Positions 8,501 to 31,680 of a stretch of DNA of 64,000 nt are shown here, piece after piece. The position numbers were made by a program, and so were the translations under genes. The notes below the pieces were generated by a model, which saw only the letters and a program-made list of their open reading frames with translations, did not search any database and had not been told where the DNA came from. Source of the DNA: a virus (lineage: Duplodnaviria; Caudoviricetes). Every line of letters begins with the position of its first letter. Position 1 is the stretch's first letter. The stretch lies in the IMG/VR virus record IMGVR_UViG_3300014205_000224, positions 3,162-67,161 of that record. One strand, written 5' to 3'.

Positions 8501-8525
8501 GCCCAATCTCCTAGCTTTTGGCCGC

Positions 8526-8554: not shown

Positions 8555-8577
8555 GAAAAATTTTCCCAAAAAAATAC

Positions 8578-8606: not shown

Positions 8607-8650
8607 GTACCCAAAATCAAAAGGAACGCGCCCGCGCGCGGGAAGGGGAG

Positions 8651-11413: not shown

Positions 11414-11414
11414 T

Positions 11415-15515: not shown

Positions 15516-15524
15516 GAGGTTACG

Positions 15525-15878: not shown

Positions 15879-15886
15879 GGGGTTAC

Positions 15887-16261
15887 ATGTCCCTGACTAT
15901 TTCATCTGCCGGCGGGGGAAACCTCGACTGGGTTGATAACGTGGCTACCTACCACGCGTCCGCGCACGGGTTTGGCGGGCTGATCTTCATTGACTATACC
16001 AAGGGTGATGAGGATGGCATGGAGGTGGCGATTGAATGCCGGTCCAAGGGCATGGGACTGACTACGTACTATCAGTATGTGTCGGTCAATTCATCGACGC
16101 GGATACTGTCGGCCTTGGCGTACATCATCCAAGCAACTGGCAAGTACCGCATCCCTGTAACATGGACGACGGAAGAGGATGAGCTGCGCTTCACAATCAC
16201 ACAGTATGGCAATATCACAGCAACAGGAACAGTAACACTTGACTTCAGAGAGGCGAACTAA
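15887..16261 (+). CDS. Putative virion structural protein
   Basis: Beta-rich 124-aa ORF in the structural operon. Confidence 0.6.
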   Translation: MSLTISSAGGGNLDWVDNVATYHASAHGFGGLIFIDYTKGDEDGMEVAIECRSKGMGLTTYYQYVSVNSSTRILSALAYIIQATGKYRIPVTWTTEEDELRFTITQYGNITATGTVTLDFREAN

Positions 16262-16566
16262 TGTTTACTCCAGTAGAGAAATTTGGGATTCCGGTCATCG
16301 CAGGGGATCAGATCATACTGCCGAGAGTTGGCAAGAAACTCGAGGACCAGCTGATTAACATGGGCGTGCAGTTTGCCAAGATCGACATCAAGGGACTGAA
16401 TATCGGGATGATACAGAAGAAGTTCATTGTGAAGTTCATATATACTGTACCGTTCTGGGTGTTCCTCATTCCATTCCCCGAACGGCGCAAGTCAAGAATA
16501 GCAAAGGAAATCAAACGGGTATTCAGTGAAGTATACAAGGAACTGCTTGAAGAATTCATGGGGTAG
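16261..16566 (+). CDS. Hypothetical protein
   Basis: Coupled ORF. Confidence 0.6.
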   Translation: MFTPVEKFGIPVIAGDQIILPRVGKKLEDQLINMGVQFAKIDIKGLNIGMIQKKFIVKFIYTVPFWVFLIPFPERRKSRIAKEIKRVFSEVYKELLEEFMG

Positions 16567-16569
16567 ACT

Positions 16570-16725
16570 ATGACTTATCCTGGGGATGGACAATATGACA
16601 TATATGAAGTACCTGGCGAAGAAAGTGGAACTGGCTCTGGTTCCGGGAATTCTCCTAATCTTGATGGAGGGATGCCTGATACTGAATACGGCGGCGTAAC
16701 TGCCATTGACGCTGGAGGTGTGTAG
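16570..16725 (+). CDS. 51-aa acidic Gly-rich peptide (NLDGG...YGG...IDAGGV)
   Basis: Manual translation; TAG overlaps the GTG start of the tail fibre. Confidence 0.6.
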   Translation: MTYPGDGQYDIYEVPGEESGTGSGSGNSPNLDGGMPDTEYGGVTAIDAGGV

Positions 16726-18770
16726 TGGCTGTTCAAATACAATTACGCAGGGGTACTGAGACGCAATGGACGACTGCTGATCCCACGCTGGCATCAGGTG
16801 AGGTTGGCATTACTATTGATGGAGGTACCAACAGCGGGAAGTTCAAGATAGGGACCGGGACACAGGCTTGGTCTGCACTGGGATATGTCGGCGGATTCGG
16901 GAGTTCTGGAACTAGTGGAAGCAGCGGAACAAGTGGCAACTCAGGATCTTCCGGGTCTAGCGGAGTATCTGGAACCGATGGTTCGTCTGGGACTAGCGGA
17001 AGCTCAGGTAATACTGGGACATCCGGTAGCTCTGGAACATCTGGGAATTCAGGATCGTCTGGCACATCAGGCGCGGATGGAACTTCGGGGACTAGTGGGA
17101 ACAGTGGTACATCAGGTTCCTCCGGCACAAGTGGGAACAGTGGATCAAGCGGATCAAGTGGAACATCAGGTACAGATGGATCAAGTGGAACCTCTGGTAA
17201 CACAGGTACTTCAGGGTCCAGCGGAACATCCGGGATTGATGGTACATCTGGATCGTCAGGAACCAGCGGCGCTAATGGCGCAGCAGGAACCAGTGGTACC
17301 AGCGGGATAGATGGCTCTAGTGGGTCCAGTGGGACAAGCGGATCGGACGGATCTTCAGGGTCTTCAGGTAATACAGGTAGCTCTGGATCATCAGGCACAA
17401 GCGGAACAGGCGTAACATCAGGTACTTCAGGTGCTGATGGATCGTCTGGCACATCTGGTGCAGCAGGGTCATCTGGAAGTAGTGGCTCATCAGGATCTGA
17501 TGGATCGTCAGGAAGTAGTGGGACAACGGGTGCGGCTGGTTCGTCTGGTTCAAGTGGTACTTCAGGTACTGGCGGAGCAAGTGGCGGTGGAGCAACCAAA
17601 GACATCACCCAGGCATCGCATGGGTTCAGTGTTGGAACAGTTCTTCGTACCACGGGAACATCATACACGGGCGCTCAGGCAGATAGTGCAGAGAACGCAG
17701 AATCGGTTGGCATGGTCAGTTCGTCCTCTGGGGCAAATGACTTTACGCTGCTGAACGTTGGGTACGTCAGCGGAATGACCAGCCTTACAGCTGGGTCCGT
17801 CTACTTCCTGTCGCCTTCAACAGCCGGAGCAATTACAGCAACCGAGCCTACCACAGAGGGCCAGATCTCCAAGCCGGTGTTCGTGGCGGATAGTACAACC
17901 TCCGGGTACTTCTTCAACTTCCGTGGGTCCGAGGTTGGCGCAGGGTCCCTGTCCTATATCAAGACGTTTGTGAACGGAGATCTCTCAACTGGTGTTCTGA
18001 CTGTAACGCATAACTTCGGGAATCAGTATTGTTCTGTCACAGTCATCGACAACAACGGAAATGTTGTTATCCCCGATGAGATTACATATTCGTCCTCAAC
18101 AGCACTGACTGTTACACTGACAACTTTCGGGGCTATATCTGGGACCTGGCGTGTTGTTGTGCTGGACTCTGGTGCTGGTACGTCCGTTGATACTGTATCT
18201 GACACTGCATATGGAACCGGGTGGAATGGGGTTGTGACTACAGCACCTAGCAACAACGCGGTGTACGATGCACTGCCCCAGACGTTGGTTACTGCTGCTG
18301 GGGATATACTGTATGGAACCGCTGCGAATGCATTGACAAAACTGGCTGCTGGGACGGCCAATGTAAACAAAAAGTTGTTCGTAGGGACATCGGGCGGTAC
18401 AATAGAATGGTCGTCTGGGGTTAAATTTATTGCTACTACGAAGGATATTTCCCTGGACGCAGATTGGGCTATTACCGGAGTAGGGTTTAAACCTAGTTGG
18501 GTTATGGCCATAGTTGGAGCCGACCCTATTGGATACGCATCTATAGGTTTCTCTTCAGTAGATGGAGATGGTTCATGGGCTAATGATTATATGCAAAGTG
18601 ACGCAAACTCCAATATAGTTGGGGCGTATCTATATCTACTTAAAACAGACACAGGTGTGTACAACCTTGCAGTAGTGAAATCATGGGATGCGGATGGAAT
18701 AACCCTAGACCTTACAAAGGGCGGCTCTCCTACAGGAACTGTTGCTGTTAAACTTTTATTTGGACGATAA
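16725..18770 (+). CDS. Tail fibre: Mtd_N-like N-terminus, Gly-Ser/Thr-Ser collagen-like stalk, C-terminal tip domain
   Basis: MAVQIQLRRGT..QWT.ADPTLA.GE.G...KFKIG.G...W..L.Y; about 75 G-X-Y triplets. Confidence 0.85.
   Translation: MAVQIQLRRGTETQWTTADPTLASGEVGITIDGGTNSGKFKIGTGTQAWSALGYVGGFGSSGTSGSSGTSGNSGSSGSSGVSGTDGSSGTSGSSGNTGTSGSSGTSGNSGSSGTSGADGTSGTSGNSGTSGSSGTSGNSGSSGSSGTSGTDGSSGTSGNTGTSGSSGTSGIDGTSGSSGTSGANGAAGTSGTSGIDGSSGSSGTSGSDGSSGSSGNTGSSGSSGTSGTGVTSGTSGADGSSGTSGAAGSSGSSGSSGSDGSSGSSGTTGAAGSSGSSGTSGTGGASGGGATKDITQASHGFSVGTVLRTTGTSYTGAQADSAENAESVGMVSSSSGANDFTLLNVGYVSGMTSLTAGSVYFLSPSTAGAITATEPTTEGQISKPVFVADSTTSGYFFNFRGSEVGAGSLSYIKTFVNGDLSTGVLTVTHNFGNQYCSVTVIDNNGNVVIPDEITYSSSTALTVTLTTFGAISGTWRVVVLDSGAGTSVDTVSDTAYGTGWNGVVTTAPSNNAVYDALPQTLVTAAGDILYGTAANALTKLAAGTANVNKKLFVGTSGGTIEWSSGVKFIATTKDISLDADWAITGVGFKPSWVMAIVGADPIGYASIGFSSVDGDGSWANDYMQSDANSNIVGAYLYLLKTDTGVYNLAVVKSWDADGITLDLTKGGSPTGTVAVKLLFGR
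16899..17591 (+). repeat. Coding Gly-X-Y repeat (GSS/GTS/GNS), about 230 aa
   Basis: Near-perfect period-3 Gly with one clear interruption (VTS). Confidence 0.95.
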
Positions 18771-18779
18771 GGAGCAACC

Positions 18780-19295
18780 ATGAAAATAGGCAAACCAAAC
18801 TTACTCGTAGGATCGGATGCGGACGGGGACATATATCAGCGGGCTAGTTCGTTGCTGGCGAGGCTGGCAAAGGGTGCAGCGGATTTGAAGTTGTTCATGA
18901 ATGCTGGTGCTACGGCAGGGGAATGGGCGGTAGGCCATATGACTGGAACGTTTACAAGAGATATGACTGCCTCTTCAGGTGATGTTTCATATACGGGGGT
19001 CGGTTTCAAGCCTTCAGCACTTATCTTTTTTGGCGGCATCAACGCTACAACAATAATATCTATGATCGGTTGTAGTATGGCAACACGAAGATATGTTATG
19101 AGTGATTATCATGGGGGAATAGCTGATACATTTGCAGTACAATCTGCCTTATCAATAATGTTAGCCGAAGGTTCTTCTCAATTACAAACAGCTTTAATAA
19201 AAACCTATGATTCGGATGGATTTACATTAACGTGGACAAAAACAGGAACACCCTCTGCGGGAACAGCGACAATGTTTTATGTTGCTTTTAGGTAG
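18780..19295 (+). CDS. Stand-alone paralogue of the tail-fibre C-terminal domain
   Basis: Shares GDI.Y, TGVGFKPS and D.DG.TL..TK.G.P with the C-terminus of 16725..18770. Confidence 0.75.
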   Translation: MKIGKPNLLVGSDADGDIYQRASSLLARLAKGAADLKLFMNAGATAGEWAVGHMTGTFTRDMTASSGDVSYTGVGFKPSALIFFGGINATTIISMIGCSMATRRYVMSDYHGGIADTFAVQSALSIMLAEGSSQLQTALIKTYDSDGFTLTWTKTGTPSAGTATMFYVAFR

Positions 19296-19308
19296 AAAGG
19301 AGATACAA

Positions 19309-19653
19309 ATGAACAGAGTATGTATATTAAAATCAACAGGCAAGCTTATTGAGATGCAATCTGGCGGGGATGACCGAGAGGACCTTAAGGACATGCGGCT
19401 CAACACCCTCAAACAGAACGCTCTCAATGCCGGACTCAAGGAAGCCGATATCGAGGTCAAGTGGGTTGATGATGCAGACCTTGCCGATCTCATGGAAGCC
19501 TCGAAGCCGCCCCTTACCTATGCCGATAACCGCCGGGCAGCGTACAGGTCCCTTCCCGACCAACTCGACATGATATACTGGGACAAGGTGAATGGTACCT
19601 CGGACTGGCAGAAGCATATCAAGGAAGTCAAGGACAAATATCTCAAGGAGTAG
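19309..19653 (+). CDS. Tail fibre assembly/chaperone-like protein
   Basis: YADNRRAAY..LPDQLDMIYWD......W..HIKEVKDKY pattern; start refined. Confidence 0.7.
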   Translation: MNRVCILKSTGKLIEMQSGGDDREDLKDMRLNTLKQNALNAGLKEADIEVKWVDDADLADLMEASKPPLTYADNRRAAYRSLPDQLDMIYWDKVNGTSDWQKHIKEVKDKYLKE

Positions 19654-19656
19654 GCT

Positions 19657-19989
19657 ATGTCAAACAGCACAATATTATCTGGGGTCATAGGGTTTGGAAC
19701 AGCTGGAAGTTCCGGGACCAGCGGTACATCTACAGTTGCTGGGTCAGATGGTACATCAGGAACAAGTGGTGGAACATCAGGCACTTCTGGGTCTTCCGGT
19801 ACCTCCTCCACGTCCTATACTCTCCAGAATGTTCTTGAAGACCGCACGTCTGACTATGCCGCCTCAGCAGCCAATAGCGGCAAGCTCTGGATGCGTTCAG
19901 ACCTCACAACCGCAACAGTCAAGGGGGTGATTAAATATACGAACTCCGGGACAGCTGCATACATAGTCAAGACCTTCACGATATCATAG
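19657..19989 (+). CDS. Virion protein with a GTS/GSS repeat
   Basis: GTAGSSGTSGTS...GTSGSSGTS followed by LEDRTSDY...WMR. Confidence 0.75.
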   Translation: MSNSTILSGVIGFGTAGSSGTSGTSTVAGSDGTSGTSGGTSGTSGSSGTSSTSYTLQNVLEDRTSDYAASAANSGKLWMRSDLTTATVKGVIKYTNSGTAAYIVKTFTIS

Positions 19990-19996
19990 GTGTGTC

Positions 19997-20797
19997 ATGG
20001 GCAGTGCAATATCAAGGAGAACAACCAGCGGATCATCCGGGCTCTCTGGGAATCAGGGAAACGAGGGCTCATCCGGGACCAGTGGCACATCTGGATCTTC
20101 CGGTTCCTCGGGGTCCTCCGGCGCTGATGTCCTGGACTCCATGAACCTTGAAGACAAGACTGCTGATTATAGTCCTGCTGCTGGGAACTCTGGCTACATG
20201 TGGATGAGGAATGATAATAGTTCTGCGCTGGTGAAGGCAACGGTCAAGTCCGCAACGCCAACAGGTACACTGAATTCCTATTCCGAAGCCTACCAGGACT
20301 CATACTATCCCGTAGCGGCTGAAGGTTCCACCACTGTGCTGTACTCCGGGCAATGCATCAGCCGTTCTGAATGTTACATCTCCAGTGTCAAGTTCTATAT
20401 CCGTGACGGTGTATCAGGCACAGCAACTGCCTATCTATTTGCAACCACAGGGACAGTTGGGTCTAACGCGGTTCCTACGGGCAGTGCCTTAGCAACCAGC
20501 AACGGCGTATCAATGTCAGGAGGTGGCAGCACAGCACTATATGAGTTCACATTTGCATCAGAGTACCACCACACAGGCAGTACCATTGCGTTCATTGTTG
20601 GGATAAATGCCGGGGACAATTCCAACTATTTGCGAGTCTATCACGATGCCAATTCCCCTGGTGAAGCCGGGAACATCTGCTACTATGTCAACGGGGAATC
20701 CCCCGGTTGGTATTCAGCGGCAAGAGACAACTGTTACTATTTGATGGGCCGCACCTCGCTCGTCACCTACGCAGTCAAGACGTTCACCCTATCATAA
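19997..20797 (+). CDS. Virion protein with a GSS repeat and an inserted beta-rich domain; paralogue of 19657..19989
   Basis: 11 G-X-Y triplets; LEDKTADY...WMRND; ends VKTFTLS. Confidence 0.75.
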   Translation: MGSAISRRTTSGSSGLSGNQGNEGSSGTSGTSGSSGSSGSSGADVLDSMNLEDKTADYSPAAGNSGYMWMRNDNSSALVKATVKSATPTGTLNSYSEAYQDSYYPVAAEGSTTVLYSGQCISRSECYISSVKFYIRDGVSGTATAYLFATTGTVGSNAVPTGSALATSNGVSMSGGGSTALYEFTFASEYHHTGSTIAFIVGINAGDNSNYLRVYHDANSPGEAGNICYYVNGESPGWYSAARDNCYYLMGRTSLVTYAVKTFTLS

Positions 20798-20812
20798 TAC
20801 GGAGGTACCACT

Positions 20813-21289
20813 ATGAGCCCAGAAGATGTTGTATTGAAACTCGGTCAGCACGATTCCGCTATTGAGACTCTCCAGGACAAGCAGGACACACTGTTCGGCA
20901 AGACAGATGAACTTCTCCGTATTGCGATTACGAACCAGGGGAGCATAAACCTCTTGCATGCGAAATTGGACAATGGTATTAAGGCAAGACTTGAAGAAAT
21001 GTGCGGGATGTTCAAGAGTAAAGGCAAGGAAATAGACGAAGGATATGATGATGTTGTAGCAAGGCTTGTGAAACTGGAGAGGACATCATGGGTCTCAGAC
21101 CTGTTTGATGCCGGATGGAAGAAACTGCTGCTGCTTGTCATCGGCTTCATGATCGTTTCCGCCATGTCCAATGCAGCCTTCTGGGGATACATCAAAGCCA
21201 CAGTGTTTAAGGAAAAGCCAGGGGCTATGCAGAGTCTGACACTTGAACAGAAACTTGAACAGCACTTACAGGAAGTAGACAAGAAATAG
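20813..21289 (+). CDS. Coiled-coil membrane protein at the start of the lysis cassette
   Basis: One transmembrane segment; directly upstream of the endolysin. Confidence 0.6.
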   Translation: MSPEDVVLKLGQHDSAIETLQDKQDTLFGKTDELLRIAITNQGSINLLHAKLDNGIKARLEEMCGMFKSKGKEIDEGYDDVVARLVKLERTSWVSDLFDAGWKKLLLLVIGFMIVSAMSNAAFWGYIKATVFKEKPGAMQSLTLEQKLEQHLQEVDKK

Positions 21290-21299
21290 GAGGTGAGAT

Positions 21300-21716
21300 A
21301 TGCCTAGCCGAAAACTGGAGGACTTATGTCCCGAGATGTTGCAGTTATACATGGCATTCAAGAGGAAGGTCCAGGAAACCCCTGGTGCTCCAGCCTATAT
21401 TGTAACGTGTACATACCGAAGCATGGCTGAACAGGCCGAGTGTGTGAAACAGGGCACCAGCAAGATATTCAAAGGTAATCACAATTGGGTAGATAAGAAC
21501 GGCAAGCCGGCGTCCAGGGCATTCGATGTGGCTGTAATGATTGATGGAAAGCCGCTGTGGAATCCTACCCTTGATGCCGACAAAGACGGTGTTCCTGAAT
21601 ACACAGAACTAGGCCGAATCGGTGAATCCGTGGGCCTCGTATGGGGCGGGTGTCGTACCGGCAAGTGGAAGAACTTCGTCGACGCACCTCACTTTGAACT
21701 CCCCAACCAGAAATAG
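21300..21716 (+). CDS. Endolysin, M15-family peptidase
   Basis: TCTYRS..EQ, HNW, SRAFDVA, GLVWGG, DAPHFEL. Confidence 0.9.
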   Translation: MPSRKLEDLCPEMLQLYMAFKRKVQETPGAPAYIVTCTYRSMAEQAECVKQGTSKIFKGNHNWVDKNGKPASRAFDVAVMIDGKPLWNPTLDADKDGVPEYTELGRIGESVGLVWGGCRTGKWKNFVDAPHFELPNQK

Positions 21717-21725
21717 GAGGACGAT

Positions 21726-22160
21726 ATGTTTGGAATTGACGCAATAGTGGCAGTGGGAGGCATGATCCTTCCGCCTATATTTGACTTTATCAAGAAGAAG
21801 TTCTTGGGACCGTCTAGTGATACGCCCGAGGCAACGGCGGCATCCCTGGCTGTGACTAAACCCGAGGCAGTTGAAGGGTACGTTGGCGGCATGGCTGCAC
21901 TTTGGAAGGCCCAGGCAGAGTTCTTCAACCGTGATGTTTCGGGGACCCCCTCTCAGTGGGTCGTTGACCTCCGTGCGGTGATCCGTCCGGGTGCCACAGT
22001 TGTTGCGTTCCTCATTCTCGTTGGCATGACTGTTGCAGCAGTGAGTGGAGTAAGCATCGAACCGACCATGCAGACGACTCTCGATGGCGTCCGTTACAAC
22101 TGCGAGTTGATTGTCTCCTCCTGGTTTGGTTCCCGTATCTCCCTGACGGCATCCAAATAA
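21726..22160 (+). CDS. Holin (3TM/GTA-holin-like)
   Basis: IRP motif, hydrophobic helices, SWFGSR C-terminal motif. Confidence 0.7.
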   Translation: MFGIDAIVAVGGMILPPIFDFIKKKFLGPSSDTPEATAASLAVTKPEAVEGYVGGMAALWKAQAEFFNRDVSGTPSQWVVDLRAVIRPGATVVAFLILVGMTVAAVSGVSIEPTMQTTLDGVRYNCELIVSSWFGSRISLTASK

Positions 22161-22177
22161 ACTTGATAATAAAAAAC

Positions 22178-22206
22178 TTGACAGTCCATATGCAATATGC
22201 TATAGC
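22178..22206 (+). promoter_or_regulatory. Sigma70 promoter of the glycosylation operon
   Basis: TTGACA-17 nt-TATAGC with a TGn extension; GGAGAGG RBS before 22233. Confidence 0.7.
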
Positions 22207-22232
22207 CTTCTCAACCACGAAAGGAGAGGGCT

Positions 22233-25061
22233 ATGGAAATTATTGCAGCATTCAACGACAGGACAGGTTATGGTATACACGCATCAAACTTCTTCCCGAG
22301 ATTACAGGCACTTAGACCTAACAGCCCCGCATCAATCGTATTATCCACTACGGACAGCCAGGCGTTCTATAATCCCCACAAGAGGCCCGTGGTGGCGTAC
22401 AATGTATGGGAGACAACCCGGTATCCCGATAAGTTCTTTAAGCGTCTCTTGGATTTCGATCAGCTCTGGGTCGCCTCCAACTGGCAGCGGAACTGTGTAA
22501 TAGAGCAAGGGTATCCCGCCGAGAAAGTCAAGGTTGTTCCTGAAGGTATAGACCCGGAGATGTACAAACCCTGGCCAATCAATGGCACATCAGGTACATC
22601 CGGGGCGTTTACCTTTGCCATTTTCGGCAAATGGGAAGATCGCAAGTACACAAAAGAACTCATCCACGCTTGGATAGAGTGCGCGAAGCCCTGGGGTGGT
22701 AATGTACGACTCCTACTCTCTGCCGACAATCCATTTCCAGTGGACAAATTCACCACGACAGAACAACGGCTTGAAGCATATGGGCTCAATGATCCGCGCA
22801 TACAGATCCTGCACTTCCCGCCCAAGGAAGAGTATGTGTCACGGCTGAAGAGTATCCAGGTGTTCCTGTCTTGCTCACGCGCCGAAGGATGGAATCTCCC
22901 TCTCATCGAAGCCATCGCCTGTGGTGTTCCGTCTGTATATTCCAAGTGTTCAGGACAGCTAGAGTTCACGCGTAAGGACGATGGCAGTTACATTGGCATT
23001 CCCGTCAAGACCACTGGCGAGATCAAGCCTTTCAACGTCTACCAGATGCCGGATTGTCCTGGGTTCTGGTACGAACCCGACTACGAGGACCTCAAGCGAG
23101 CAATCCGCCAAGCCTATACCGATTACTCCACGGAAAAGATTCGTGCACATGAGGACAGCAAGTACATCCATTCCAACTTCACCTGGGACAAAGCCGCCGA
23201 GAAAGCCGCCACATACCTTGATGAACTGGATAGCAAAGACATCATCTTCGTGGACCCTAAGATATGCGAGAAGCCCAAGGACGACGTTGTTGTAATTGGC
23301 TGCTGGCCCGATACAGAAGAAAAATTAACTCAGCTACAGACTCAAATAGATACAGTCAAAGCTGCCGGATTCGATGTCGCAATCTCTACCCACTTCCCCC
23401 TCCCCCTTTCCATGTACAACCAGGCCGATTATTATGTGTATGATATGCATAATGAACTTGCTCCCGCAGGCAAGGGCCTGGTGTACTGGAAGCGGAATGG
23501 AGACAAGGAAGAGATGAGGCCGGCCAAGAACAGGTACCACGCCGTAGCGGTCCTCACAACTATCCGTAATGCAATACGAATCCTCTATGGACGCTACAAA
23601 CGACTGCACTTTATTGAGTTTGACATAGAGACAGATATCAGCAAATACGTCCAGGCCGCGAATGATCAGATGGCCAAGGGTGCGGAATACGTAGCGTTCA
23701 GCTACGAGACCACAGGCATGTCCACGTGTATCATGTCCGTCCTCATGGACCGCTGGCCGGTGTTCCCCGAGGTAGACAGCTGGGACAAATACGCCGAGAT
23801 GCATAAGGGTGAGATCATCCTGGAGAACTGGCTGTTACAATACATCGCCAAGATGAGTCTTCCGGTTGCGCTGCTTGACCCACTCGAATTCCCATTCACC
23901 AATAAGTTCGACCAGATAGAGCGCGATATATGGGATGGTCCGACAGAGAAGGCACTGCCCCAGGCCAATCTCAAGGTGTCCTATAACTTTGTGGATGGCT
24001 GTTTCTTTGAAGTTCTGAACAATGGCGGGGCCCCTGATGATCTACAGCTTACCATTGAACTGGGTAACAAGGACACAAAGGAAATTATTGACACGGTTCG
24101 TCAGACGCCCAACAACTGGTTCAAGACGAATGTTAAGTATTATGTGCCATGGACGTTACGCTTCAAGATGGGTACCAACGATCTGCTCTATGATGAGTAC
24201 AGCGCCGAGAACCAGAATGTCATGATCTGCCTGGAGTCCAAGGCACTGGGTGATAACCTTGCCTGGATGCCGTATCTGGATGAATTCTCCAAACAGCACA
24301 AGTGTAATGTCAAGGCGGTTACGTTCTTCAATCATCTATTCAAGGACAACTATCCGAACATCCAGTTCTTCGAGCCGGGTGCGACTGTTGAGAATCTCTA
24401 TGCTGCTTACCGGATCGGATGCTATGACTATGATGTGGACCGCAACCCTATGAACTGGCGAGTGATTCCTATGCAACAGATAGCCACGGATATACTTGGA
24501 CTGGAGTACAAGGAAGTCAAACCGCTGATTACGGTTCCGCAGTTCGCTACGGGACTGGGCAACAAGTACGTCTGCATCTCCGAGCACGCGACTCTCTTCA
24601 CCAAGTACTGGCAGTACGATAACGGCTGGCAGGAAATCGTGGATTATCTCAAGAGTTTGGGTTATGACGTTGTGGCAATTAGCAGCGAGATGTCCCAGTT
24701 GAATGGTATCATCGACAGAACAAACAAGCCGCTCGAACAGACCATGACAACCCTCCGCGATGCTGATTTCTACATTGGAGTAGGGTCCGGTCCTGCCTGG
24801 CTTGCCTGGGCACTTGATGTCCCCGTCGTCATGATCTCCGGGTTCTCCAAGCCCTATACCGAATTTCAGGAAGGTAATTTCCGAGTGTTCAACGACAAGG
24901 TCTGCAACGGCTGCTTCAATGACCCGACATACCCCTACGAACGTGGCCGCTGGGATTGGTGCCCGCGCAAGAAGAAGTTCGAATGCTCACGGTCCATCAC
25001 ACCTGCCATGGTCAAGGCCCAGATAGATAAGATCAGGGAGGTCCAATGCGCCCAGTCATAG
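22233..25061 (+). CDS. Multidomain glycosyltransferase: GT4-type GT-B domain, unknown middle domain, Aah/TibC-like protein O-heptosyltransferase
   Basis: GT4 motif EGWNLPLIE; C-terminal ALGDNLAWMPY, FYIGVGSGPAWLAWAL, ISGFSKPYTEF and CNGC..WCP..FEC iron-finger pattern. Confidence 0.85.
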   Translation: MEIIAAFNDRTGYGIHASNFFPRLQALRPNSPASIVLSTTDSQAFYNPHKRPVVAYNVWETTRYPDKFFKRLLDFDQLWVASNWQRNCVIEQGYPAEKVKVVPEGIDPEMYKPWPINGTSGTSGAFTFAIFGKWEDRKYTKELIHAWIECAKPWGGNVRLLLSADNPFPVDKFTTTEQRLEAYGLNDPRIQILHFPPKEEYVSRLKSIQVFLSCSRAEGWNLPLIEAIACGVPSVYSKCSGQLEFTRKDDGSYIGIPVKTTGEIKPFNVYQMPDCPGFWYEPDYEDLKRAIRQAYTDYSTEKIRAHEDSKYIHSNFTWDKAAEKAATYLDELDSKDIIFVDPKICEKPKDDVVVIGCWPDTEEKLTQLQTQIDTVKAAGFDVAISTHFPLPLSMYNQADYYVYDMHNELAPAGKGLVYWKRNGDKEEMRPAKNRYHAVAVLTTIRNAIRILYGRYKRLHFIEFDIETDISKYVQAANDQMAKGAEYVAFSYETTGMSTCIMSVLMDRWPVFPEVDSWDKYAEMHKGEIILENWLLQYIAKMSLPVALLDPLEFPFTNKFDQIERDIWDGPTEKALPQANLKVSYNFVDGCFFEVLNNGGAPDDLQLTIELGNKDTKEIIDTVRQTPNNWFKTNVKYYVPWTLRFKMGTNDLLYDEYSAENQNVMICLESKALGDNLAWMPYLDEFSKQHKCNVKAVTFFNHLFKDNYPNIQFFEPGATVENLYAAYRIGCYDYDVDRNPMNWRVIPMQQIATDILGLEYKEVKPLITVPQFATGLGNKYVCISEHATLFTKYWQYDNGWQEIVDYLKSLGYDVVAISSEMSQLNGIIDRTNKPLEQTMTTLRDADFYIGVGSGPAWLAWALDVPVVMISGFSKPYTEFQEGNFRVFNDKVCNGCFNDPTYPYERGRWDWCPRKKKFECSRSITPAMVKAQIDKIREVQCAQS

Positions 25062-25897
25062 AGAAATGGATCTGCAATATCGACATTGTAGCGTTCTGTA
25101 ACCAGTCATGTAACTACTGCGCCAGACATATGAATCACATCCGCTCTGACCAAAAGGGACACATGACCCTTGCTCAGATTGATGGGGCTCTCCTCTCTCT
25201 CAAATCGTGGCCAAATGCTGTGGGAATCTCAGGGGGAGAGCCTCTCCTTCATCCAGAATTTCCGGCGGTCTGTGAGGTAATCCGTTCACACTTCGGCAAG
25301 CACAGGATGTTTTTGTTTACGTCGCATAGGAAGAACTTGGCTAAGTACGAACAGATCATCGCCAATACCTTTGGAGTTGTTCACATCCACGAGCACACAG
25401 TTGCAGAGAAGCTGACGAACAAGCACCAGGTGCTTACCATGGCCAGTGGCGATGTGGTAGAAGACAAGGAATTCCTTGAAGAACTGATTGATGACTGCTG
25501 GGCGCACAAGTACTGGGCACCATCAATCAACGAGAAAGGAGCTACCTTTTGCGAAATTGCAGCTGGGATATCCCGGATATTCGATCTAGGCATAGAATGG
25601 AAGGTTGAACCCGGCTGGTACAATAATGACTTCACCGCCCAACGCAATGCCTGTTGCTACCTCTGCGGCATGCCGGTTCCTATGTACACACAGCTGATGA
25701 TCAATCCAACAGAGCGGTTCAGCAGGGGGTTGTACGACAAGATGAGAGAACATGGCCTGAACGTTGGTCCAAATAACCTGGATATATTCGAAGGCAAATT
25801 ATCCCGTGAAGCCATAGAGTCAGTGCGTTCATCCTGGACTCCGTGGCATTACCGCATCTCAGACGGGGCTACCAAGAACCCATGCACGGAGAAGTAA
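25046..25897 (+). CDS. Radical SAM protein
   Basis: CNQSCNYC (CxxxCxxC), SGGEPLLHP, extra C-terminal Cys residues. Confidence 0.85.
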   Translation: MRPVIEKWICNIDIVAFCNQSCNYCARHMNHIRSDQKGHMTLAQIDGALLSLKSWPNAVGISGGEPLLHPEFPAVCEVIRSHFGKHRMFLFTSHRKNLAKYEQIIANTFGVVHIHEHTVAEKLTNKHQVLTMASGDVVEDKEFLEELIDDCWAHKYWAPSINEKGATFCEIAAGISRIFDLGIEWKVEPGWYNNDFTAQRNACCYLCGMPVPMYTQLMINPTERFSRGLYDKMREHGLNVGPNNLDIFEGKLSREAIESVRSSWTPWHYRISDGATKNPCTEK

Positions 25898-25898
25898 T

Positions 25899-26441
25899 AT
25901 GCCAGTACACCAAGGCGTTCACAGTCACATTGGTCCAAACTGGAACATGCCATGGGACTTTGACGTTTACATCGGGTCGTATTGCTCAATCTCCCAGAAC
26001 GTGACGGCAATTGGGGCGGACCACAACATGGCGTTTCCGTCTACAAGGCACTTTGACGACTGCGGAGGAATCATAGGGGCGGCCTTTGAACCGTACCCTA
26101 TCCATAATCATGGCCCCCTCATCATCATGAACGATGTCTGGGTAGGATACAACGCGATATTGATGTCTGGTTCCCTGCTTGGTAATGGCTGTGTAATTGG
26201 AGCTGGGTCTACAGTGGCCGGCAAGATTCCACCTTATGCTGTTGCAGTTGGGAATCCAGCTCGTGTCATCAAATACCGCTTCACCCCAGACCAGATCGCC
26301 TCCCTAGAACGCATCCGCTGGTGGGCATGGCCTGAAGAGAAAATAGTATATAACAAGCACCGCTTTCTTTCAACTGACATAGACGACTTTCTGGAGGTAC
26401 ATGATGCCGAGTATAAGCGTAGTAACAGCGTGGTACAATGA
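25899..26441 (+). CDS. Hexapeptide (left-handed beta-helix) O-acetyltransferase, CatB/Vat-like
   Basis: IGSYCSIS, NDVWVG, GCVIGAGSTV, IPPYAVAVGNPARVIKYRF. Confidence 0.9.
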   Translation: MPVHQGVHSHIGPNWNMPWDFDVYIGSYCSISQNVTAIGADHNMAFPSTRHFDDCGGIIGAAFEPYPIHNHGPLIIMNDVWVGYNAILMSGSLLGNGCVIGAGSTVAGKIPPYAVAVGNPARVIKYRFTPDQIASLERIRWWAWPEEKIVYNKHRFLSTDIDDFLEVHDAEYKRSNSVVQ

Positions 26442-27177
26442 GGAAATCCTGGCACCCCTGTTCCTGGACCATTACCAATTCGCTGACGAGATCAATATAA
26501 TCCTGGACAAGGCAACCACAGACCGTACCGAAGAGATCATCCGCGCCTGGGACAAGACCAAGACTGTCATCTTCCACGTTGATTACCATGATAGCCTGGA
26601 TTGGATAGTCAAATCAACCCTTGTCAATCAAGTTGGAATCACTAGGAAAACAGACTGGGTCATGGCTGTGGACGCCGATGAGTTCATTTTCCCGCCGTTA
26701 CATTTGAGCATGCAGCCCCAGGAATACCTGTCGTTCTGCACTGGCAATCTCCTCCGCATCAACATGTATCACGTGTACCGGAATGTGCTTGAATCCGACA
26801 TAGACCCATCCAAGCCGGCAGTCCATCAGCGACAGTATGGGAATGTCCTCCCCGGTGTTGCTCACGACGTGGCCGAATACAACAAGTCCTGTATATTCAA
26901 GCCAGAATCACGCGTGCGTCTGACCTGTGGATGCCATTCCTTTTATGATGCCCCAACCATCCGCGAAGACTTAACCTACCGATTTGATGCTGTTCATTGG
27001 AACATGGCAGATCCATCCATAGCCGTTACCCGCAGACTTGCACAGAAGGCCCGCATTGGAGAACGGGACAAGCTCGCTGGCCGTGGATTCCAGAATTTTG
27101 AAGTTACCGAACAAGAAATACTTTCTGAATGCGAGGCGCATCTTCACGATCCGATGCTGCCCATTTTCACCTCATAA
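26401..27177 (+). CDS. GT2-like (GT-A) glycosyltransferase
   Basis: YNEE, TTDRT, DWVMAVDADEF (DxD motif). Confidence 0.85.
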   Translation: MMPSISVVTAWYNEEILAPLFLDHYQFADEINIILDKATTDRTEEIIRAWDKTKTVIFHVDYHDSLDWIVKSTLVNQVGITRKTDWVMAVDADEFIFPPLHLSMQPQEYLSFCTGNLLRINMYHVYRNVLESDIDPSKPAVHQRQYGNVLPGVAHDVAEYNKSCIFKPESRVRLTCGCHSFYDAPTIREDLTYRFDAVHWNMADPSIAVTRRLAQKARIGERDKLAGRGFQNFEVTEQEILSECEAHLHDPMLPIFTS

Positions 27178-27185
27178 CAAAGCAC

Positions 27186-27214
27186 TTGATTTTTATCCAC
27201 ATTAGTGATATCGT
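27186..27214 (+). promoter_or_regulatory. Sigma70 promoter upstream of the scaffold/capsid genes
   Basis: TTGATT-17 nt-TATCGT with a TGn extension. Confidence 0.5.
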
Positions 27215-27329
27215 GCGATTAAAGTATATCTGACGACACGCCTAGCCTTACTTAATCCAGGAATACCCGAGGGCTCCTGTGTTAAAATAATCAGGGAAGA
27301 CGACTACCGCTCCCAGGAAGGAACCAAAT

Positions 27330-28304
27330 ATGGCGAAGAAGAAAGCACCCAAGGCCAATGCCTATGGAATGGAGGCATACGCGGAAGAACAGGAGAGAAT
27401 AGCAGAGGAATTGCACAAGGAGATGTACACGGGGACAAACGATGACGGGGCTAACCCTCCGCTCGAACCCTCCGAAGATACCCCTCCTGTAGACGATCCC
27501 GAAGATACTCCGCCTGAACCTACCGAACCCAAACCGGAACCGCCCGTTGATGATTTCAAGCACAAGTACGAGGTTCTGCAAGGGAAATACAATACTGAAG
27601 TTGCTCGAATGGGCATGGAGTTGAGTGAGGTCCTTGAAAGGGAAGCGGCGTTACAGGGAGAGCTGGACAAGTACAAGAAAACCACGAAGCCTGACGAACC
27701 CTTGACCCGTGACGATACATTTGATGGAGATGAGGATGTTCAGCTTGTTAAGGAAGACTACCCCTCTCTCTACAGTGCGTTCACCAAGATAGCCAAGAAG
27801 ACAGCCGCTGATGTAGTTGGAGAGGTTGTCAAAAAGGTTGACACAGTTGAAACCCACGTCGTAGCCATGAACCGCAATGATTATTGGCAAGCGCTTGATA
27901 CGGCCATGGCAGACTGGAGGGAGATAAACCACAACCCGGAATTCTCATTGTGGCTGAAGGAAAAGGAGAAATACACAGGGGTACCGAAGGAAGTCCTCCT
28001 TGGCAATGCATTCAATACCTTCGACGTAGCCAAGACCCTGGAGTTCTTCAAAGACTTCAAGGCAACAAAGGGACCGGCTCCCGCACCGGCGGCAAGTGAA
28101 GAAGAGGAAGAAGAGGACATCGCTCCTCCCACTTCAAAAGGTGGCGTTCCTCCCCCGGCCAGTAGACAGACGAATCTCATCAAGCGCAGCGAGATAGCGG
28201 AGTTCTATAAAAAACGACAACGGGGCGCGTTCTCAGATGAAGACGCTGCGAAGATAGAAGCCAAATTCATCAGAGCAATACAAGAAGGGCGCGTCGTGAA
28301 TTAA
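27330..28304 (+). CDS. Capsid scaffolding/assembly protein
   Basis: Acidic Pro-rich N-terminus, FKHKYEVLQGKYNTE coiled coil, position directly upstream of the capsid gene. Confidence 0.75.
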   Translation: MAKKKAPKANAYGMEAYAEEQERIAEELHKEMYTGTNDDGANPPLEPSEDTPPVDDPEDTPPEPTEPKPEPPVDDFKHKYEVLQGKYNTEVARMGMELSEVLEREAALQGELDKYKKTTKPDEPLTRDDTFDGDEDVQLVKEDYPSLYSAFTKIAKKTAADVVGEVVKKVDTVETHVVAMNRNDYWQALDTAMADWREINHNPEFSLWLKEKEKYTGVPKEVLLGNAFNTFDVAKTLEFFKDFKATKGPAPAPAASEEEEEEDIAPPTSKGGVPPPASRQTNLIKRSEIAEFYKKRQRGAFSDEDAAKIEAKFIRAIQEGRVVN

Positions 28305-28316
28305 AAGGAGGTTACT

Positions 28317-28392
28317 ATGAGTGTAAACAGAATCACTGGACATCCTGATTATACAGCTGCTGGGACAAGTAAGTTCATCCCGGAAATATGGT
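28317..28392 (+). CDS. Major capsid protein, exon 1 (MSVNRITGHPDYTAAGTSKFIPEIW + t)
   Basis: AAGGAGG RBS; FIPEIW capsid N-terminal motif; in-frame stop follows unless spliced. Confidence 0.85.
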
Positions 28393-28978
28393 GGTAGTAG
28401 ACTGGCCATATTAAAACCCGCTCTGAATAACTGGAATCGGACGTAAGGTGCCGAAATCAGAGGGAACACACAGTACAACATCGCAGTTCGGAGGAATCCA
28501 TGAAGCGACCAAGTTGGAAATACATGGCAGGATTAGTTGACGGAGAAGGATGCATAGACATGCAAGGAAATGTAGACAAAAGGGATGGAAAGTATTATTG
28601 TAGGCCAAGGCTGAGAATAACCCTTTCTGGAATCCCTGGAGAAATGATGGTTCCTGTGTTTATAGCAAACTTCGGAGGCAGTAAGGAAATGAAACAGGGA
28701 ACGGCAGTCTGGAAAGATGCTTATACATGGACCCTGACAGGCAAGCAGCACCTCCGCAACTTCCTACAGAACATCGTCAACCATTTGGTTATCAAGAAAG
28801 AACAGGCACGATTAGCGATATGGTGGTTGGATAACCTTTTGGGCAAGCACGTCACTGAAGAAGTAAGACGCTTGGGAACAGACGAACTGAAGGCCATGAA
28901 GTGTGACCCGCACAGACTAAGTGAGAGGGCAGTCGAGAGACTGAAACGATAGTCGGGTTCTCTAATACAGGGAAATTG
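28393..28978 (+). mobile_element. Group I self-splicing intron in the major capsid gene
   Basis: 5' exon ends in U; P1 AATATGGT/GCCATATT with U.G wobble; P7 halves GACTA/TAGTC; terminal G; splicing restores IWSGKL in frame. Confidence 0.9.
28500..28952 (+). CDS. LAGLIDADG homing endonuclease (intron-encoded)
   Basis: YMAGLVDGEGCI single motif. Confidence 0.9.
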   Translation: MKRPSWKYMAGLVDGEGCIDMQGNVDKRDGKYYCRPRLRITLSGIPGEMMVPVFIANFGGSKEMKQGTAVWKDAYTWTLTGKQHLRNFLQNIVNHLVIKKEQARLAIWWLDNLLGKHVTEEVRRLGTDELKAMKCDPHRLSERAVERLKR

Positions 28979-29829
28979 CAGGCAAACTCCAGGTTAAATA
29001 CTACAAGACTACTGTCTGGACGGCAATCAGCAATACGGACTATCAGGGTGAGATCGGAAACGTAGGCGACAAGGTCTATATCCGCACTATCCCGACAGTC
29101 ACGATTAACGATTACGCCAAAGGACAGAAACTTAATTATGAACGCTTGGAGCAGGCGGATGTCGAGCTAACCATAGACAATGCTAAGTATTTTGCATGTG
29201 CAGTTGATGACATCGACGCCTACCAGGCCGACATTAAACTCATGAACATGTTCGCGGATGATGCAGCCGAGCAGATGAAGATCACGATTGATTCGGCTAT
29301 CCTCGAGGGTGTTATTACTGACGTTGACTCAGCCAATAAGGGCACTGCTGCGGGAGAAATCTCCGGTGGATTCAACCTTGGCGGATCGGCAGCGGCTGTT
29401 CAGATCACAAAGGGTAACGTCCTGGATTACATCGTGGACTGCGGTACGGTTCTCGATGAGCAGAATGTTCCCGAGAGCGGCAGGTGGATGGTTATCCCGT
29501 CCTGGATCGCCGGTATGATCAAGAAGTCCGACCTGAAGGACGCCAGTCTGACTGGTGACGGTTCCAGCGTTCTCCGTAATGGCCGAATCGGAATGATCGA
29601 CAGGTTCACCCTTTATCTCTCAAACAACATTCATACCGATACGGATACCTGGACCTGCTACAACGTCCTGTTCGGTACGAAAGCGGCAATCACTTATGCC
29701 TCCCAGATCACCAAGGTATCGTCCCTCGAATCAGAGACGACCTTCGGCCAGCTGATCAGGGGTCTTAACGTGTACGGCTACAAGGTCATTAAGCCGGAAG
29801 CCCTTGGCTTGCTGTATTGCCACAAATAA
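28979..29829 (+). CDS. Major capsid protein, exon 2 (spliced product about 308 aa)
   Basis: GKLQVKYY...NTDYQGEI...GDKVYI, VDDID, LDEQNVPESGRW, GRIGMIDRF, VYGYKVIKPEA. Confidence 0.9.
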
Positions 29830-29847
29830 CGAAAGGAGGTACAACAT

Positions 29848-30279
29848 ATGGCTACTCAGGATCTTACAGGAGGGACCCACGTTGCTGGTGGGATCGCCTA
29901 TGATGGAATAACCAAGTTTTGGGTCGCGGAAAGTACGGTGGACCTGGCTGGAGAGACTATTGCAGACAATGATGCAGTACAGTGTCTCGATATTCTCGCC
30001 GGAACCCATGTTCTTAATGTGTTCGTGGAGGTTGTTACCGCTGTTGGTGCAACTTGTACGGCAACTGTAGGTGATGGTAATGGCACGGCTTCTTGGGATG
30101 CTTCAGCGGATCTCAACGCCGCTGCTGGCACAATTACCCAGGGAAGAGGCGGAACCGACGCCTATGTTACGCAGGGCGGAGTAACTTACTCGTCAGCTGA
30201 CACCATTGATCTTTCATTCCAGGATGCCGCAACATCCGGGAAGTTTACGGTATCGGCACTGTGTGTTAAGGTTAGCTAG
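29848..30279 (+). CDS. Probable capsid decoration / minor head protein
   Basis: Beta-sandwich-like composition; directly after the capsid gene. Confidence 0.6.
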   Translation: MATQDLTGGTHVAGGIAYDGITKFWVAESTVDLAGETIADNDAVQCLDILAGTHVLNVFVEVVTAVGATCTATVGDGNGTASWDASADLNAAAGTITQGRGGTDAYVTQGGVTYSSADTIDLSFQDAATSGKFTVSALCVKVS

Positions 30280-30296
30280 CCGGAAGGAGGCAAACT

Positions 30297-30671
30297 ATGA
30301 GCAGATTTGAAGACAGACAGTTTGGCCAGTTGGAGATACAGGGTATCGCTGACTATGTTGGTGGCCAGGATGTCACTGTGCTTATGAAAGACTCCGCCGG
30401 AAACGTCCTTATGTGCACCGGGACCAGTACTCCTACTGGGTCAGGATACGCTAAGGGGTGCTTGCTGATTGTATCTGCTATTGGAACAGGCACTAGTGGT
30501 CTGTACCATAATACTGGAGACACCTCAACAGCATCATTCACGGTTGTTGCCAGCACGTCTGGCAGCTCTGGCAGCTCGGGAAGCTCGGGCTCCTCCGGTT
30601 CTTCTGGAACCACTGGCGCGGCTGGGTCGTCCGGTTCGTCCGGTACATCCGGTTCTTCTGGAACCTCATAA
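30297..30671 (+). CDS. Probable head-associated protein with a C-terminal (GSS/GTS)12 tail
   Basis: 12 G-X-Y triplets at 30561-30668 ending at the stop codon. Confidence 0.75.
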   Translation: MSRFEDRQFGQLEIQGIADYVGGQDVTVLMKDSAGNVLMCTGTSTPTGSGYAKGCLLIVSAIGTGTSGLYHNTGDTSTASFTVVASTSGSSGSSGSSGSSGSSGTTGAAGSSGSSGTSGSSGTS

Positions 30672-30698
30672 CAACACAGCGACATTACGCAGCAAACG

Positions 30699-30734
30699 GG
30701 GGAAGGTTACTACACCAGTGCCTTCCCCTTTTTT
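30699..30734 (+). terminator. Rho-independent terminator after the capsid operon
   Basis: GGGGAAGG/CCTTCCCC stem followed by T6. Confidence 0.8.
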
Positions 30735-30747
30735 CTAAGGAGGGACT

Positions 30748-31680
30748 ATGACTGGTACAGAGGTTATTACGGCTGCCAGGAGATGGCTCTTTGATGAAAC
30801 TACTCCCTATAAATGGTCCGAGGCAGAACTGACCGACTATCTCAACTGGACGCTGAATGAAATCGCCAAGGTAACGGACTATATCATAGACCCTTCAACT
30901 GTAGCCATCACTGAAATTGCAACGACAAAAGGGTATCAGGACTACGAGTTTGATACTAGAATCTTACAGATACAGAATGCACGTTTGGCATCTGAGACAA
31001 CTCCTCTTACAAAGACAACGCTGAAAGAGCTGAATGAGGCCATTCCATCCTGGAGATATGACTACAGGGTGACGGGTACAGATATTGGGTTTGAGGTAAA
31101 TTCAGGCGCTGATATTATACGATCAGTCACCACGGACCTCTCCGGCTTCGAAGTAGGCGATCTAATTGTGATATCAGGCGCGGGTTCATCCGGGAACAAC
31201 AGCATGTTCGAGGTGGCTTCGGCTACCACGGCTGCGATTACGCTTGTTACTACAGACACGCTGATATCGGAAACATCCGGCAGTTCAATCACCATTACAA
31301 ACCCCGATGCAGATGACCCTGAGAAGTATTTGCTGGACTACCGCCAGGGATACATCACACTTTACCCCTGTCCTACCTCTGCTGATCGAGTCATCTTTGA
31401 GACCGTGACGCTTCCTGGCACCGCCTATTCCTATGGGACGGGCGGCACTTCAAGCAATCTTGGAACACTGGCCCTCCCCGTTCGCTATGACTATCACTTG
31501 GACCTGATTGATGGCATCCTGTGCAAAGCCTACCGCAAGTCCACACCGTCCTGTTACAACATCGAGAAAGCACGAGAGCACGAAGCCCAGTTCAAGAAAC
31601 TGCTCCAGAAAATAATCAAGGACGGTATCAAGTTAAAACGTAAACAAGGCAACCTTACACCCCATCTAGGAGCAATATAA
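30748..31680 (+). CDS. Head-tail adaptor / tail tubular protein A-like
   Basis: VITAARRWLFDE...WSEAELTDYLN; position in the module. Confidence 0.7.
   Translation: MTGTEVITAARRWLFDETTPYKWSEAELTDYLNWTLNEIAKVTDYIIDPSTVAITEIATTKGYQDYEFDTRILQIQNARLASETTPLTKTTLKELNEAIPSWRYDYRVTGTDIGFEVNSGADIIRSVTTDLSGFEVGDLIVISGAGSSGNNSMFEVASATTAAITLVTTDTLISETSGSSITITNPDADDPEKYLLDYRQGYITLYPCPTSADRVIFETVTLPGTAYSYGTGGTSSNLGTLALPVRYDYHLDLIDGILCKAYRKSTPSCYNIEKAREHEAQFKKLLQKIIKDGIKLKRKQGNLTPHLGAI

Follow-up and report, generated by a model that had tools for sequence, protein, structure and literature searches.

A candidate Aah/TibC-family O-glycosylation operon and its putative collagen-like acceptor tracts in a metagenomic tailed phage

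Which protein is the substrate of an Aah/TibC-family (BAHT) glycosyltransferase that is encoded by a phage? To our knowledge, BAHT enzymes are known only as partners of virulence autotransporters, and phage protein glycosylation has so far been shown for only a few actinobacteriophages. We analysed a 64,000-nt stretch (the window) of the 67-kb IMG/VR record IMGVR_UViG_3300014205_000224 (Caudoviricetes; CheckV completeness 82%), which carries such an enzyme as the first gene of a four-gene operon (22233-27177) and also encodes proteins with Pro-free G-[S/T]-S tracts. The reading that we favour, with moderate confidence, is that the operon is a phage-encoded cytoplasmic protein O-glycosylation module that targets the phage's own tracts in proteins of the fibre and head modules.

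The three-domain enzyme and its BAHT domain

The open reading frame (ORF) at 22233-25061 (+ strand) encodes a 942-aa protein with three domains:

22233..23234, + strand: domain 1 (residues about 50-330), a GT4 (GT-B) glycosyltransferase (PF20706, 1.6e-10; PF00534, 3.5e-9; PF13692, 1.1e-8)
23235..23972, + strand: domain 2 (aa 335-580), a GT-A-like nucleotide-diphospho-sugar transferase fold (AF2, Foldseek and VIA)
23964..25061, + strand: domain 3 (aa 578-942), a BAHT (Aah/TibC-family) protein O-glycosyltransferase (TIGR04414; TibC, 4rap)

Profile comparison places the C-terminal domain firmly in the Aah/TibC family and apart from ordinary GT9 lipopolysaccharide (LPS) heptosyltransferases. Specifically, aa 578-934 match TIGR04414 with 275.8 bits (cut-off 200) over model positions 8-374 of 374, a six-frame search of the record with the same model gives 278.8 bits, and the domain matches TibC in the Protein Data Bank (PDB; 4rap) with an E value of 4.4e-55. 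Models of GT9 and LPS heptosyltransferases score far lower: 25.8 bits for PF01075, 28.0 for RfaQ, 20.4 for heptosyltransferase III, and 15.4 for heptosyltransferase I. These scores bear out the initial annotation, which had called the domain Aah/TibC-type from four motifs (ALGDNLAWMPY, GVGSGPAWLAW, ISGFSKPYTEF, and CNGC...WCP...FEC), all of which are present.

We mapped the residues with roles defined for TibC (Yao et al. 2014, PMC4358343) onto the domain through a HMMER alignment. The window retains the equivalents of Asp-110 (the catalytic base), Thr-226 and Lys-230 (ligands of the beta-phosphate), and Trp-305, which contacts heptose in TibC and is invariant as Trp in all 159 aligned homologues. 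Among 160 viral and cellular domains, Asp-110 is invariant, Lys-230 is nearly so, and Thr-226 is Thr or Ser in nearly all. The four cysteines of the iron finger (Cys-339, Cys-342, Cys-358, and Cys-370; CNGC, WCP, and FEC in the window) are all aligned and are invariant in the viral set, and metal binding is predicted. Departures from TibC include Gly at the stereoselectivity position (Pro-300 in TibC, Ser-294 in Aah), a thumb region of 21 residues compared with 31 in 61 of 64 autotransporter-type members, and the loss of any counterpart of TibC residues 267-275, the thumb hairpin. In TibC, this beta-hairpin thumb ties dimers into a dodecamer ring (PMC4358343). Because the hairpin is missing, the window enzyme probably works in an oligomeric form other than the TibC dodecamer, possibly as part of its own three-domain assembly line.

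Domain 2 has no Pfam match. Its family is mostly viral and comprises 276 cluster representatives at E ≤ 0.001; the members stand alone or are fused to GT4, GT2, methyltransferase, or BAHT modules. An AF2 model built from an alignment of 37 members has a predicted local distance difference test (pLDDT) score of 90.5; Foldseek matches it with probability 1.0 to GT-A and nucleotidyltransferase chains; and VIA gives Z scores of 13.9 to 2bo4 (mannosylglycerate synthase) and 11.8-13.6 to CHSY3, WrtF, GlmU, and HddC. Because these Z scores are tied within about 2, they do not separate the two types, and the model is consistent with either a third glycosyltransferase or a sugar-phosphate nucleotidyltransferase.

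Public data hold over 1,100 multi-domain homologues, which range from 518 to 1649 aa and are mostly GT4-BAHT fusions, some of them with additional methyltransferase or GT2 modules; full-length three-domain orthologues occur on five other contigs. The three-domain enzyme gene follows the endolysin gene in the window and in loci L021 and L015. In loci L005 (6547-12959) and L006 (3593-10712), it lies between the terminase and portal genes, and the terminases are 45-47% identical to that of the window. The differing slots imply that the enzyme gene has moved within this phage group.

Ser/Thr-rich G-X-Y tracts and their association with the enzyme

Four proteins encoded in the window carry G-X-Y tracts:

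16725..18770, + strand: tail fibre with an Mtd_N-type N-terminus, 78 G-[S/T]-S triplets without Pro, and a globular C-terminal part
19657..19989, + strand: 110-aa protein in which G-[S/T]-S triplets form interrupted runs of 3-4, ahead of a domain common to the next gene
19997..20797, + strand: 266-aa protein with 11 consecutive N-terminal Ser/Thr-rich G-X-Y triplets, followed by a globular domain
30297..30671, + strand: 124-aa protein encoded in the head gene block, with 12 G-[S/T]-S triplets as its extreme C-terminus

The tail fibre is the main candidate acceptor. Its 78 triplets form two runs at about 16881-17592, and the protein matches Pfam Collagen (PF01391; 7.8e-30, 102.9 bits against a threshold of 27.2), Mtd_N (1.3e-8), and PHROG tail-fibre families (best 2.2e-27). 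The 266-aa protein, with 22.4 bits to Pfam Collagen (cut-off 27.2) and weak matches to PHROG tail-fibre families, is probably a small fibre and a candidate acceptor. The 110-aa protein has no Pfam Collagen match and is a weak candidate; it shares 39% identity over 76 aa with the 266-aa protein directly after the repeats (E 1e-9), which suggests that the two are copies of a duplicated small-fibre gene. The 124-aa protein scores 24.2 bits to Pfam Collagen, under the 27.2 threshold, and its gene lies two genes past the major capsid gene (29146-29829). No homologues of its N-terminal 88 aa and no similarity to the neighbouring 143-aa protein were found, and an AF2 model made without an alignment was unusable (pLDDT 42.5). 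It is a candidate acceptor, and we infer a capsid location from gene position only.

Runs of at least six triplets comprise 101 triplets in total, of which 76 have Ser or Thr at X and 75 have Ser at Y; none contains Pro, and a triple helix is putative. Tandem Repeats Finder detects only short arrays of 2-3 copies with 68-85% matches in the DNA of the tracts; since it finds no long tandem arrays, the periodicity lies in the protein and not in the DNA. The initial annotation had counted Ser/Thr-dense tracts on at least four virion proteins. Clear tracts stand in three (78, 11, and 12 triplets), that of the 110-aa protein is short and interrupted, and the tail fibre is the only one of the four that is a virion protein by homology.

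Genes for the BAHT domain lie on at least 588 contigs of IMG/VR and on at least 565 from bacteria. A single-sequence query against viral contigs returned no loci; an alignment-based query found them. Among 50,697 GenBank phage records, four carry the domain: three metagenomic huge phages and the cultured Microcystis phage Mel-JY01. In the latter (PP395634, locus L001), a 1226-aa coding sequence (4750-8430) annotated as 'methyltransferase FkbM' consists of GT4 and BAHT domains (TIGR04414, 317 bits), and near it a 1016-aa open frame (2-3049, stop to stop, + strand) is full of GSSGTS-type triplets. This frame overlaps a coding sequence annotated on the opposite strand (739-2298), which may have been called in error from the repeat's mirror frame.

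We examined the association between enzyme and repeats in both directions, scoring as a repeat match any ORF in which six or more G-X-Y triplets follow one another and Ser/Thr make up no less than 50% of the X and Y positions. In the forward direction, the best 80 of the at least 588 viral loci were scanned with up to 10 kb of flank on each side. A Ser/Thr-rich G-X-Y protein, of up to 764 triplets, is present in 40 of the 80 loci, and the fraction depends on locus length: 30 of 41 loci of at least 14 kb have a match, and none of 13 loci under 8 kb. None of 80 random IMG/VR loci (693 kb, drawn with an arbitrary 14-mer) has such a tract (Fisher 2.5e-15), which places the tracts of the window far beyond chance. 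The comparison across phage genomes that the initial annotation had proposed is thus strongly positive. Of 27 checked enzyme records lacking a match in the flanks, five match the repeat DNA pattern elsewhere and most of the others are small fragments. In the reverse direction, we searched 70 viral records selected by a DNA pattern that encodes seven G-x-[S/T] triplets: the enzyme is present in 6 of 33 records with a Ser/Thr-rich tract and in none of 37 with other G-X-Y tracts (p=0.008), nor in any of 50 random records. The relation is lopsided, in that the enzyme mostly occurs with repeats and the repeats mostly without the enzyme, as expected for an enzyme that uses the repeats as substrate.

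A maximum-likelihood tree of 163 domains (FastTree, midpoint-rooted) reveals one clade (support 0.84) that contains all viral enzymes and 17 cellular ones. In this clade, Ser/Thr-rich G-X-Y neighbours are present at 39 of 54 loci of at least 14 kb, compared with 1 of 42 loci in the autotransporter-type clade (p=2.7e-13). The latter includes Burkholderia-, Caballeronia-, and Bradyrhizobium-type enzymes, Aah beside AIDA-I, and an Escherichia coli plasmid BAHT beside an autotransporter. One cellular member of the viral-containing clade, in a gammaproteobacterial metagenome-assembled genome (L330, JAHEGU010000001.1), is a stand-alone 373-aa BAHT with no GT4 domain, encoded between two small lipoproteins. 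The lipoproteins (8506-8886 and 11249-11875) each have a signal peptide and lipobox, a C-terminal (GTS)n or (GSS)n repeat, and terminal Asp residues; the surroundings are ordinary regulators, with no phage genes. A further 10 close cellular loci have comparable small repeat proteins beside the enzyme. Judged by gene arrangement, L330 is a candidate minimal enzyme-substrate pair. Since the bacterial pairs lack phage genes and the GT4 domain, the link is separate from phage fibre modules and from GT4, and this points to the BAHT domain as the partner of the repeats.

These pairs bear on a rival explanation, namely that the BAHT acceptor is another protein, such as an adhesin or autotransporter of the host or one of the phage's own structural proteins (843 aa or 3070 aa), and that the link with G-X-Y tracts arises through exchangeable fibre modules. 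All characterised BAHT acceptors are beta-helical passengers (PMC4358343), and the differing slots of the enzyme gene (L005 and L006 compared with the window, L021, and L015) would fit a mobile cassette. Profile scans of ORFs found no autotransporter encoded in the window, in contrast to plasmid loci L403 and L404, where the BAHT has an autotransporter neighbour. The small G-[S/T]-S lipoproteins are the only conserved neighbours of the cellular clade members, and because they lie in a non-phage setting, hitch-hiking in phage fibre modules cannot explain the link, which also holds across 15-kb fragments, contigs of more than 200 kb, and bacterial chromosomes. We therefore regard another acceptor as unlikely.

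The operon, its proposed mechanism, and the donor sugar

The enzyme gene is preceded by a promoter-like site and followed by three genes on the same strand:

22178..22206, + strand: promoter-like site TTGACA-17 nt-TATAGC, read by eye from the sequence and not listed by a consensus scan
25046..25897, + strand: radical S-adenosylmethionine (SAM) enzyme with a CX3CX2C motif (PF04055, 4e-10; only weak N-terminal matches in NCBIfam)
25899..26441, + strand: left-handed beta-helix (hexapeptide) acetyltransferase (PF00132, 4.6e-9)
26401..27177, + strand: GT2-like (GT-A) glycosyltransferase (PF13704, 5.6e-8)

An AGGAG ribosome-binding site lies some 7 nt upstream of the ATG at 22233. The genes are tightly packed: the last 16 nt of the enzyme gene overlap the start of the radical SAM gene, a single base separates the latter from the acetyltransferase gene, and the GT2 gene begins within the final 41 nt of the acetyltransferase gene, which it overlaps in full. 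A second promoter-like site (TTGATT-17-TATCGT, 27186-27214) follows the operon, ahead of a putative scaffold gene. Promoter and terminator scans of 15000-32000 performed no better than shuffles; the two promoter-like sites that bracket the operon would fit a self-contained late transcription unit. The nearest Atlas clusters of the radical SAM protein are viral radical SAM proteins, one cluster similar by structure carries GT47, and the enzyme presumably performs a glycan-tailoring step. The acetyltransferase, which presumably O- or N-acetylates a sugar, has NCBIfam matches to Vat/CatB-like proteins (99 bits, far under the cut-off) and to WbbJ, WcaF, and NeuD/PglB-type sugar acetyltransferases. 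The GT2-like protein has no sequence match in the PDB.

Such a gene set also fits a second rival explanation, in which the operon serves to make or modify a polysaccharide or a glycan of the host envelope (LPS, capsule, or exopolysaccharide), for example for superinfection exclusion or as an aid to release, and the tracts are sugar-free stalks. Polysaccharide clusters typically contain GT4, GT2, and hexapeptide acetyltransferases, the lysis genes immediately precede the operon, and most Ser/Thr-rich G-X-Y phage proteins occur without a BAHT. Characterised BAHTs, however, modify proteins, and the domain scores above the equivalog cut-off of its family, against 15-28 bits for the LPS models. No flippase, polymerase, or lipid-carrier priming enzyme was seen among the scanned ORFs of the window. 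The polysaccharide explanation would also leave unexplained the clade-specific link with G-[S/T]-S tracts, including bacterial pairs that have no other glycosyltransferase, and we give it a low probability.

A third explanation, that phage DNA is the target of the glycosyltransferases and the radical SAM enzyme, which would hypermodify it (for example, as glycosylated hydroxymethyl pyrimidines), draws on the occurrence of GT-B and radical SAM enzymes in some phage hypermodification clusters. It was rejected as highly improbable: the record has no thymidylate-synthase-type hydroxymethylase, the usual modification enzymes are absent in Pfam scans of ten ORFs outside the late region (seven of them from the replication and early regions), the cluster lies among late structural genes, and the BAHT family acts on protein Ser.

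In the O-glycosylation module that we favour, three steps would take place inside the infected cell, ahead of virion assembly. In the first, the BAHT domain (aa 578-942) would take a sugar from a nucleotide-sugar donor and attach it to the hydroxyl groups of Ser in the tracts, with the conserved Asp as general base and the Thr/Lys pair holding the beta-phosphate, as TibC does on TibA. The target would be the Y-position Ser just before Gly, which recurs every third residue (75 of 101 triplets); TibC itself modifies Ser and not Thr, for example Ser-313 in N-S-G-G (PMC4358343). In the second step, the fused GT4 and GT-A-like domains and the separate GT2 would lengthen the glycan, or the GT-A-like domain would make the donor. 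In the third, the acetyltransferase and the radical SAM enzyme would tailor the glycan. Phage structural proteins are made and assembled in the cytoplasm and would therefore be reachable by a TibC-like cytoplasmic enzyme.

Heptose would be the donor sugar by family default. The initial annotation had named host ADP-heptose as the donor, which the comparison does not support. In TibC, Arg-286 hydrogen-bonds adenine N1, which explains the specificity for ADP, and the R286A substitution abolished or largely diminished activity (PMC4358343). The aligned residue of the window is Thr, and either Thr or Ser stands at this position in all six contigs that encode this three-domain form of the enzyme; Arg occupies the position in 45 of 80 viral and 70 of 79 cellular domains. 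A search of the 67-kb record for two families that mark the ADP-heptose pathway, CTP_transf_like and SIS_2, gave no match; it did not extend to the kinase and phosphatase families. In a set of 48 other phage records with a BAHT, a GmhA-like gene (202 bits) is present in two, from one jumbo-phage lineage and both with Arg at 286, and generic cytidylyltransferase-like genes are present in two; a gene near the Mel-JY01 enzyme annotated as 'cytidylyltransferase like' has no NCBIfam match. These genes are too few to fix the donor.

The substitution of Arg-286, which makes the donor, or even activity, uncertain, is one of several points that weigh against the proposed module. No glycan has been observed on any of the proteins discussed here, and the BAHT acceptors characterised so far are autotransporter passengers with a beta-helical fold, unlike G-X-Y tracts (PMC4358343). 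The 80 viral loci were the closest to the window, and many are mutually related; the strict repeat DNA pattern is absent from one BAHT phage record that is 92% complete; and 27 of the 33 phage records with Ser/Thr-rich tracts have no BAHT, so that the tracts need no such enzyme. The co-occurrence could in part reflect both genes travelling in fibre modules. Finally, none of the 80 related viral loci has a counterpart of the radical SAM, acetyltransferase, or GT2 gene next to the enzyme; the three therefore appear to be a local, lineage-specific addition outside the conserved core.

Compared with TibC-TibA and Aah-AIDA-I, the window system is alike in sequence, in the catalytic Asp, Thr/Lys, Trp, and four-Cys finger, and in the N-terminal extension covered by the model. 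TibC and Aah are cytoplasmic and transfer sugar directly from a nucleotide donor to many Ser of a repetitive protein encoded next door (PMC4358343), and the window enzyme is likewise proposed to act in the cytoplasm on many Ser of a nearby-encoded repetitive protein. It differs in that the BAHT domain is fused behind GT4 and GT-A-like domains, is phage-encoded, and falls in a separate clade; in that the candidate acceptor is a G-[S/T]-S collagen-like tract and not a beta-helix; in the residues at Arg-286 (Thr) and Pro-300/Ser-294 (Gly); and in the shorter thumb (21 compared with 31 residues), which makes a TibC-like dodecamer unlikely. In Clostridioides difficile, SgtA, a cytoplasmic enzyme encoded by an adjacent gene, glycosylates the Gly-Pro-Thr collagen-like repeats of BclA3 (PMC7157674). 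BclA3-SgtA and Bacillus BclA resemble the window system in having a soluble enzyme encoded by its substrate and an O-linked sugar on a G-X-Y hydroxy-amino acid of a surface fibre, and for BclA3 further enzymes are thought to extend the glycan. In contrast, SgtA is of an unrelated O-GlcNAc-transferase type that uses UDP-GlcNAc, its repeats contain Pro, and its substrate lies on the spore surface and not on a virion. According to the account of Freeman et al. 2023 in PMC12363180, enzymes of the mycobacteriophages Che8, Corndog, and Myrna glycosylate capsids and tail tubes. As described there, phage glycosyltransferases encoded near structural genes act in the cytoplasm on the phage's own capsid and tail proteins, as proposed here; the glycosyltransferases are of other families with no BAHT mentioned, the acceptors are not collagen-like, the hosts are Actinobacteria, and the glycosylation is shown by experiment, whereas the window system is known from sequence alone.

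We found no paper on a phage BAHT or on a BAHT with collagen-like repeats. The enzyme family and the concept of virion glycosylation are known, and the proposed acceptor class and the setting are new. More broadly, and with considerable doubt, we suggest that one TibC/Aah clade and Pro-free G-[S/T]-S tracts might form a widespread, undescribed cytoplasmic O-glycosylation system on fibres and head proteins of hundreds of uncultured phages and on bacterial lipoproteins, in which dense Ser-glycans would stiffen the helix in place of proline or hydroxyproline or form a mucin-like virion brush, and in which the donor of the window subclade, with its two additional transferase domains and no adenine-binding Arg, would be a sugar nucleotide other than ADP-heptose. 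Benefits to the phage such as a glycan shield, receptor mimicry, or a rigid stalk are speculation. If the proposed system is real, the BAHT family has a second, much larger branch with a different acceptor class; sugar-coated phage fibres and heads would occur in many environments, with a bearing on host recognition, virion stability, stickiness to mucus or particles, and antigenicity; and a BAHT domain with a GSS repeat would be a compact enzyme-plus-tag pair for glycoprotein production in the bacterial cytoplasm. The cultured carrier Mel-JY01 and the minimal bacterial pair open the system to direct test. The window offers a compact phage example with several small candidate acceptors, among them a head-block protein whose C-terminus is a bare (GSS)12 tail, and combines a three-domain enzyme with a modelled GT-A-like middle, a subclade lacking the adenine-binding Arg and the thumb, and a lineage-specific tailoring set.

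Genome setting

The late genes lie on the + strand, from about 9 to 48 kb of the window. Those that frame the operon and the tract-encoding genes are:

11956-13431, + strand: large terminase (homology)
13443-15515, + strand: portal (homology)
18780..19295, + strand: 171-aa paralogue of the fibre C-terminal domain, without repeats or a collagen-like stalk (BLASTP)
21300-21716, + strand: endolysin (homology)
29146-29829, + strand: major capsid gene (phrog_267, 1.1e-43)

The 171-aa paralogue, which shares 32% identity with fibre aa 518-669 (BLASTP, E 6e-11), may be a second or alternative fibre tip or an adaptor. A conserved 324-aa protein encoded directly upstream of the capsid gene is, on gene position only, a putative scaffold. 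More large structural genes complete the late region. The portal is about 29% identical to that of Rhizobium phage RHph_TM3_14A and 24-25% identical to those of Roseobacter phages, with Pelagibacter and Puniceispirillum phages also among the matches. On these matches, the phage is a distant relative of phages that infect Alphaproteobacteria. Megablast against GenBank phages gave no DNA-level match, and a tRNA search of the sequence found none.

The capsid ORF aligns only to positions 101-323 of phrog_267, a profile of 410 positions, and an ORF just upstream (28500-28952) matches the PHROG family 'HNH endonuclease' (6.7e-22). Because of this partial match and the adjoining endonuclease, the capsid gene (region 28304-29829) looks split by an intervening element; an Rfam search of 27900-29400, around the split gene, found no group I intron. 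Elsewhere in the window, among large ORFs without a Pfam match, a 656-aa protein (55201-57171, - strand) carries a phiEco32-like COOH-NH2 ligase domain (PF14395, 1.8e-17).

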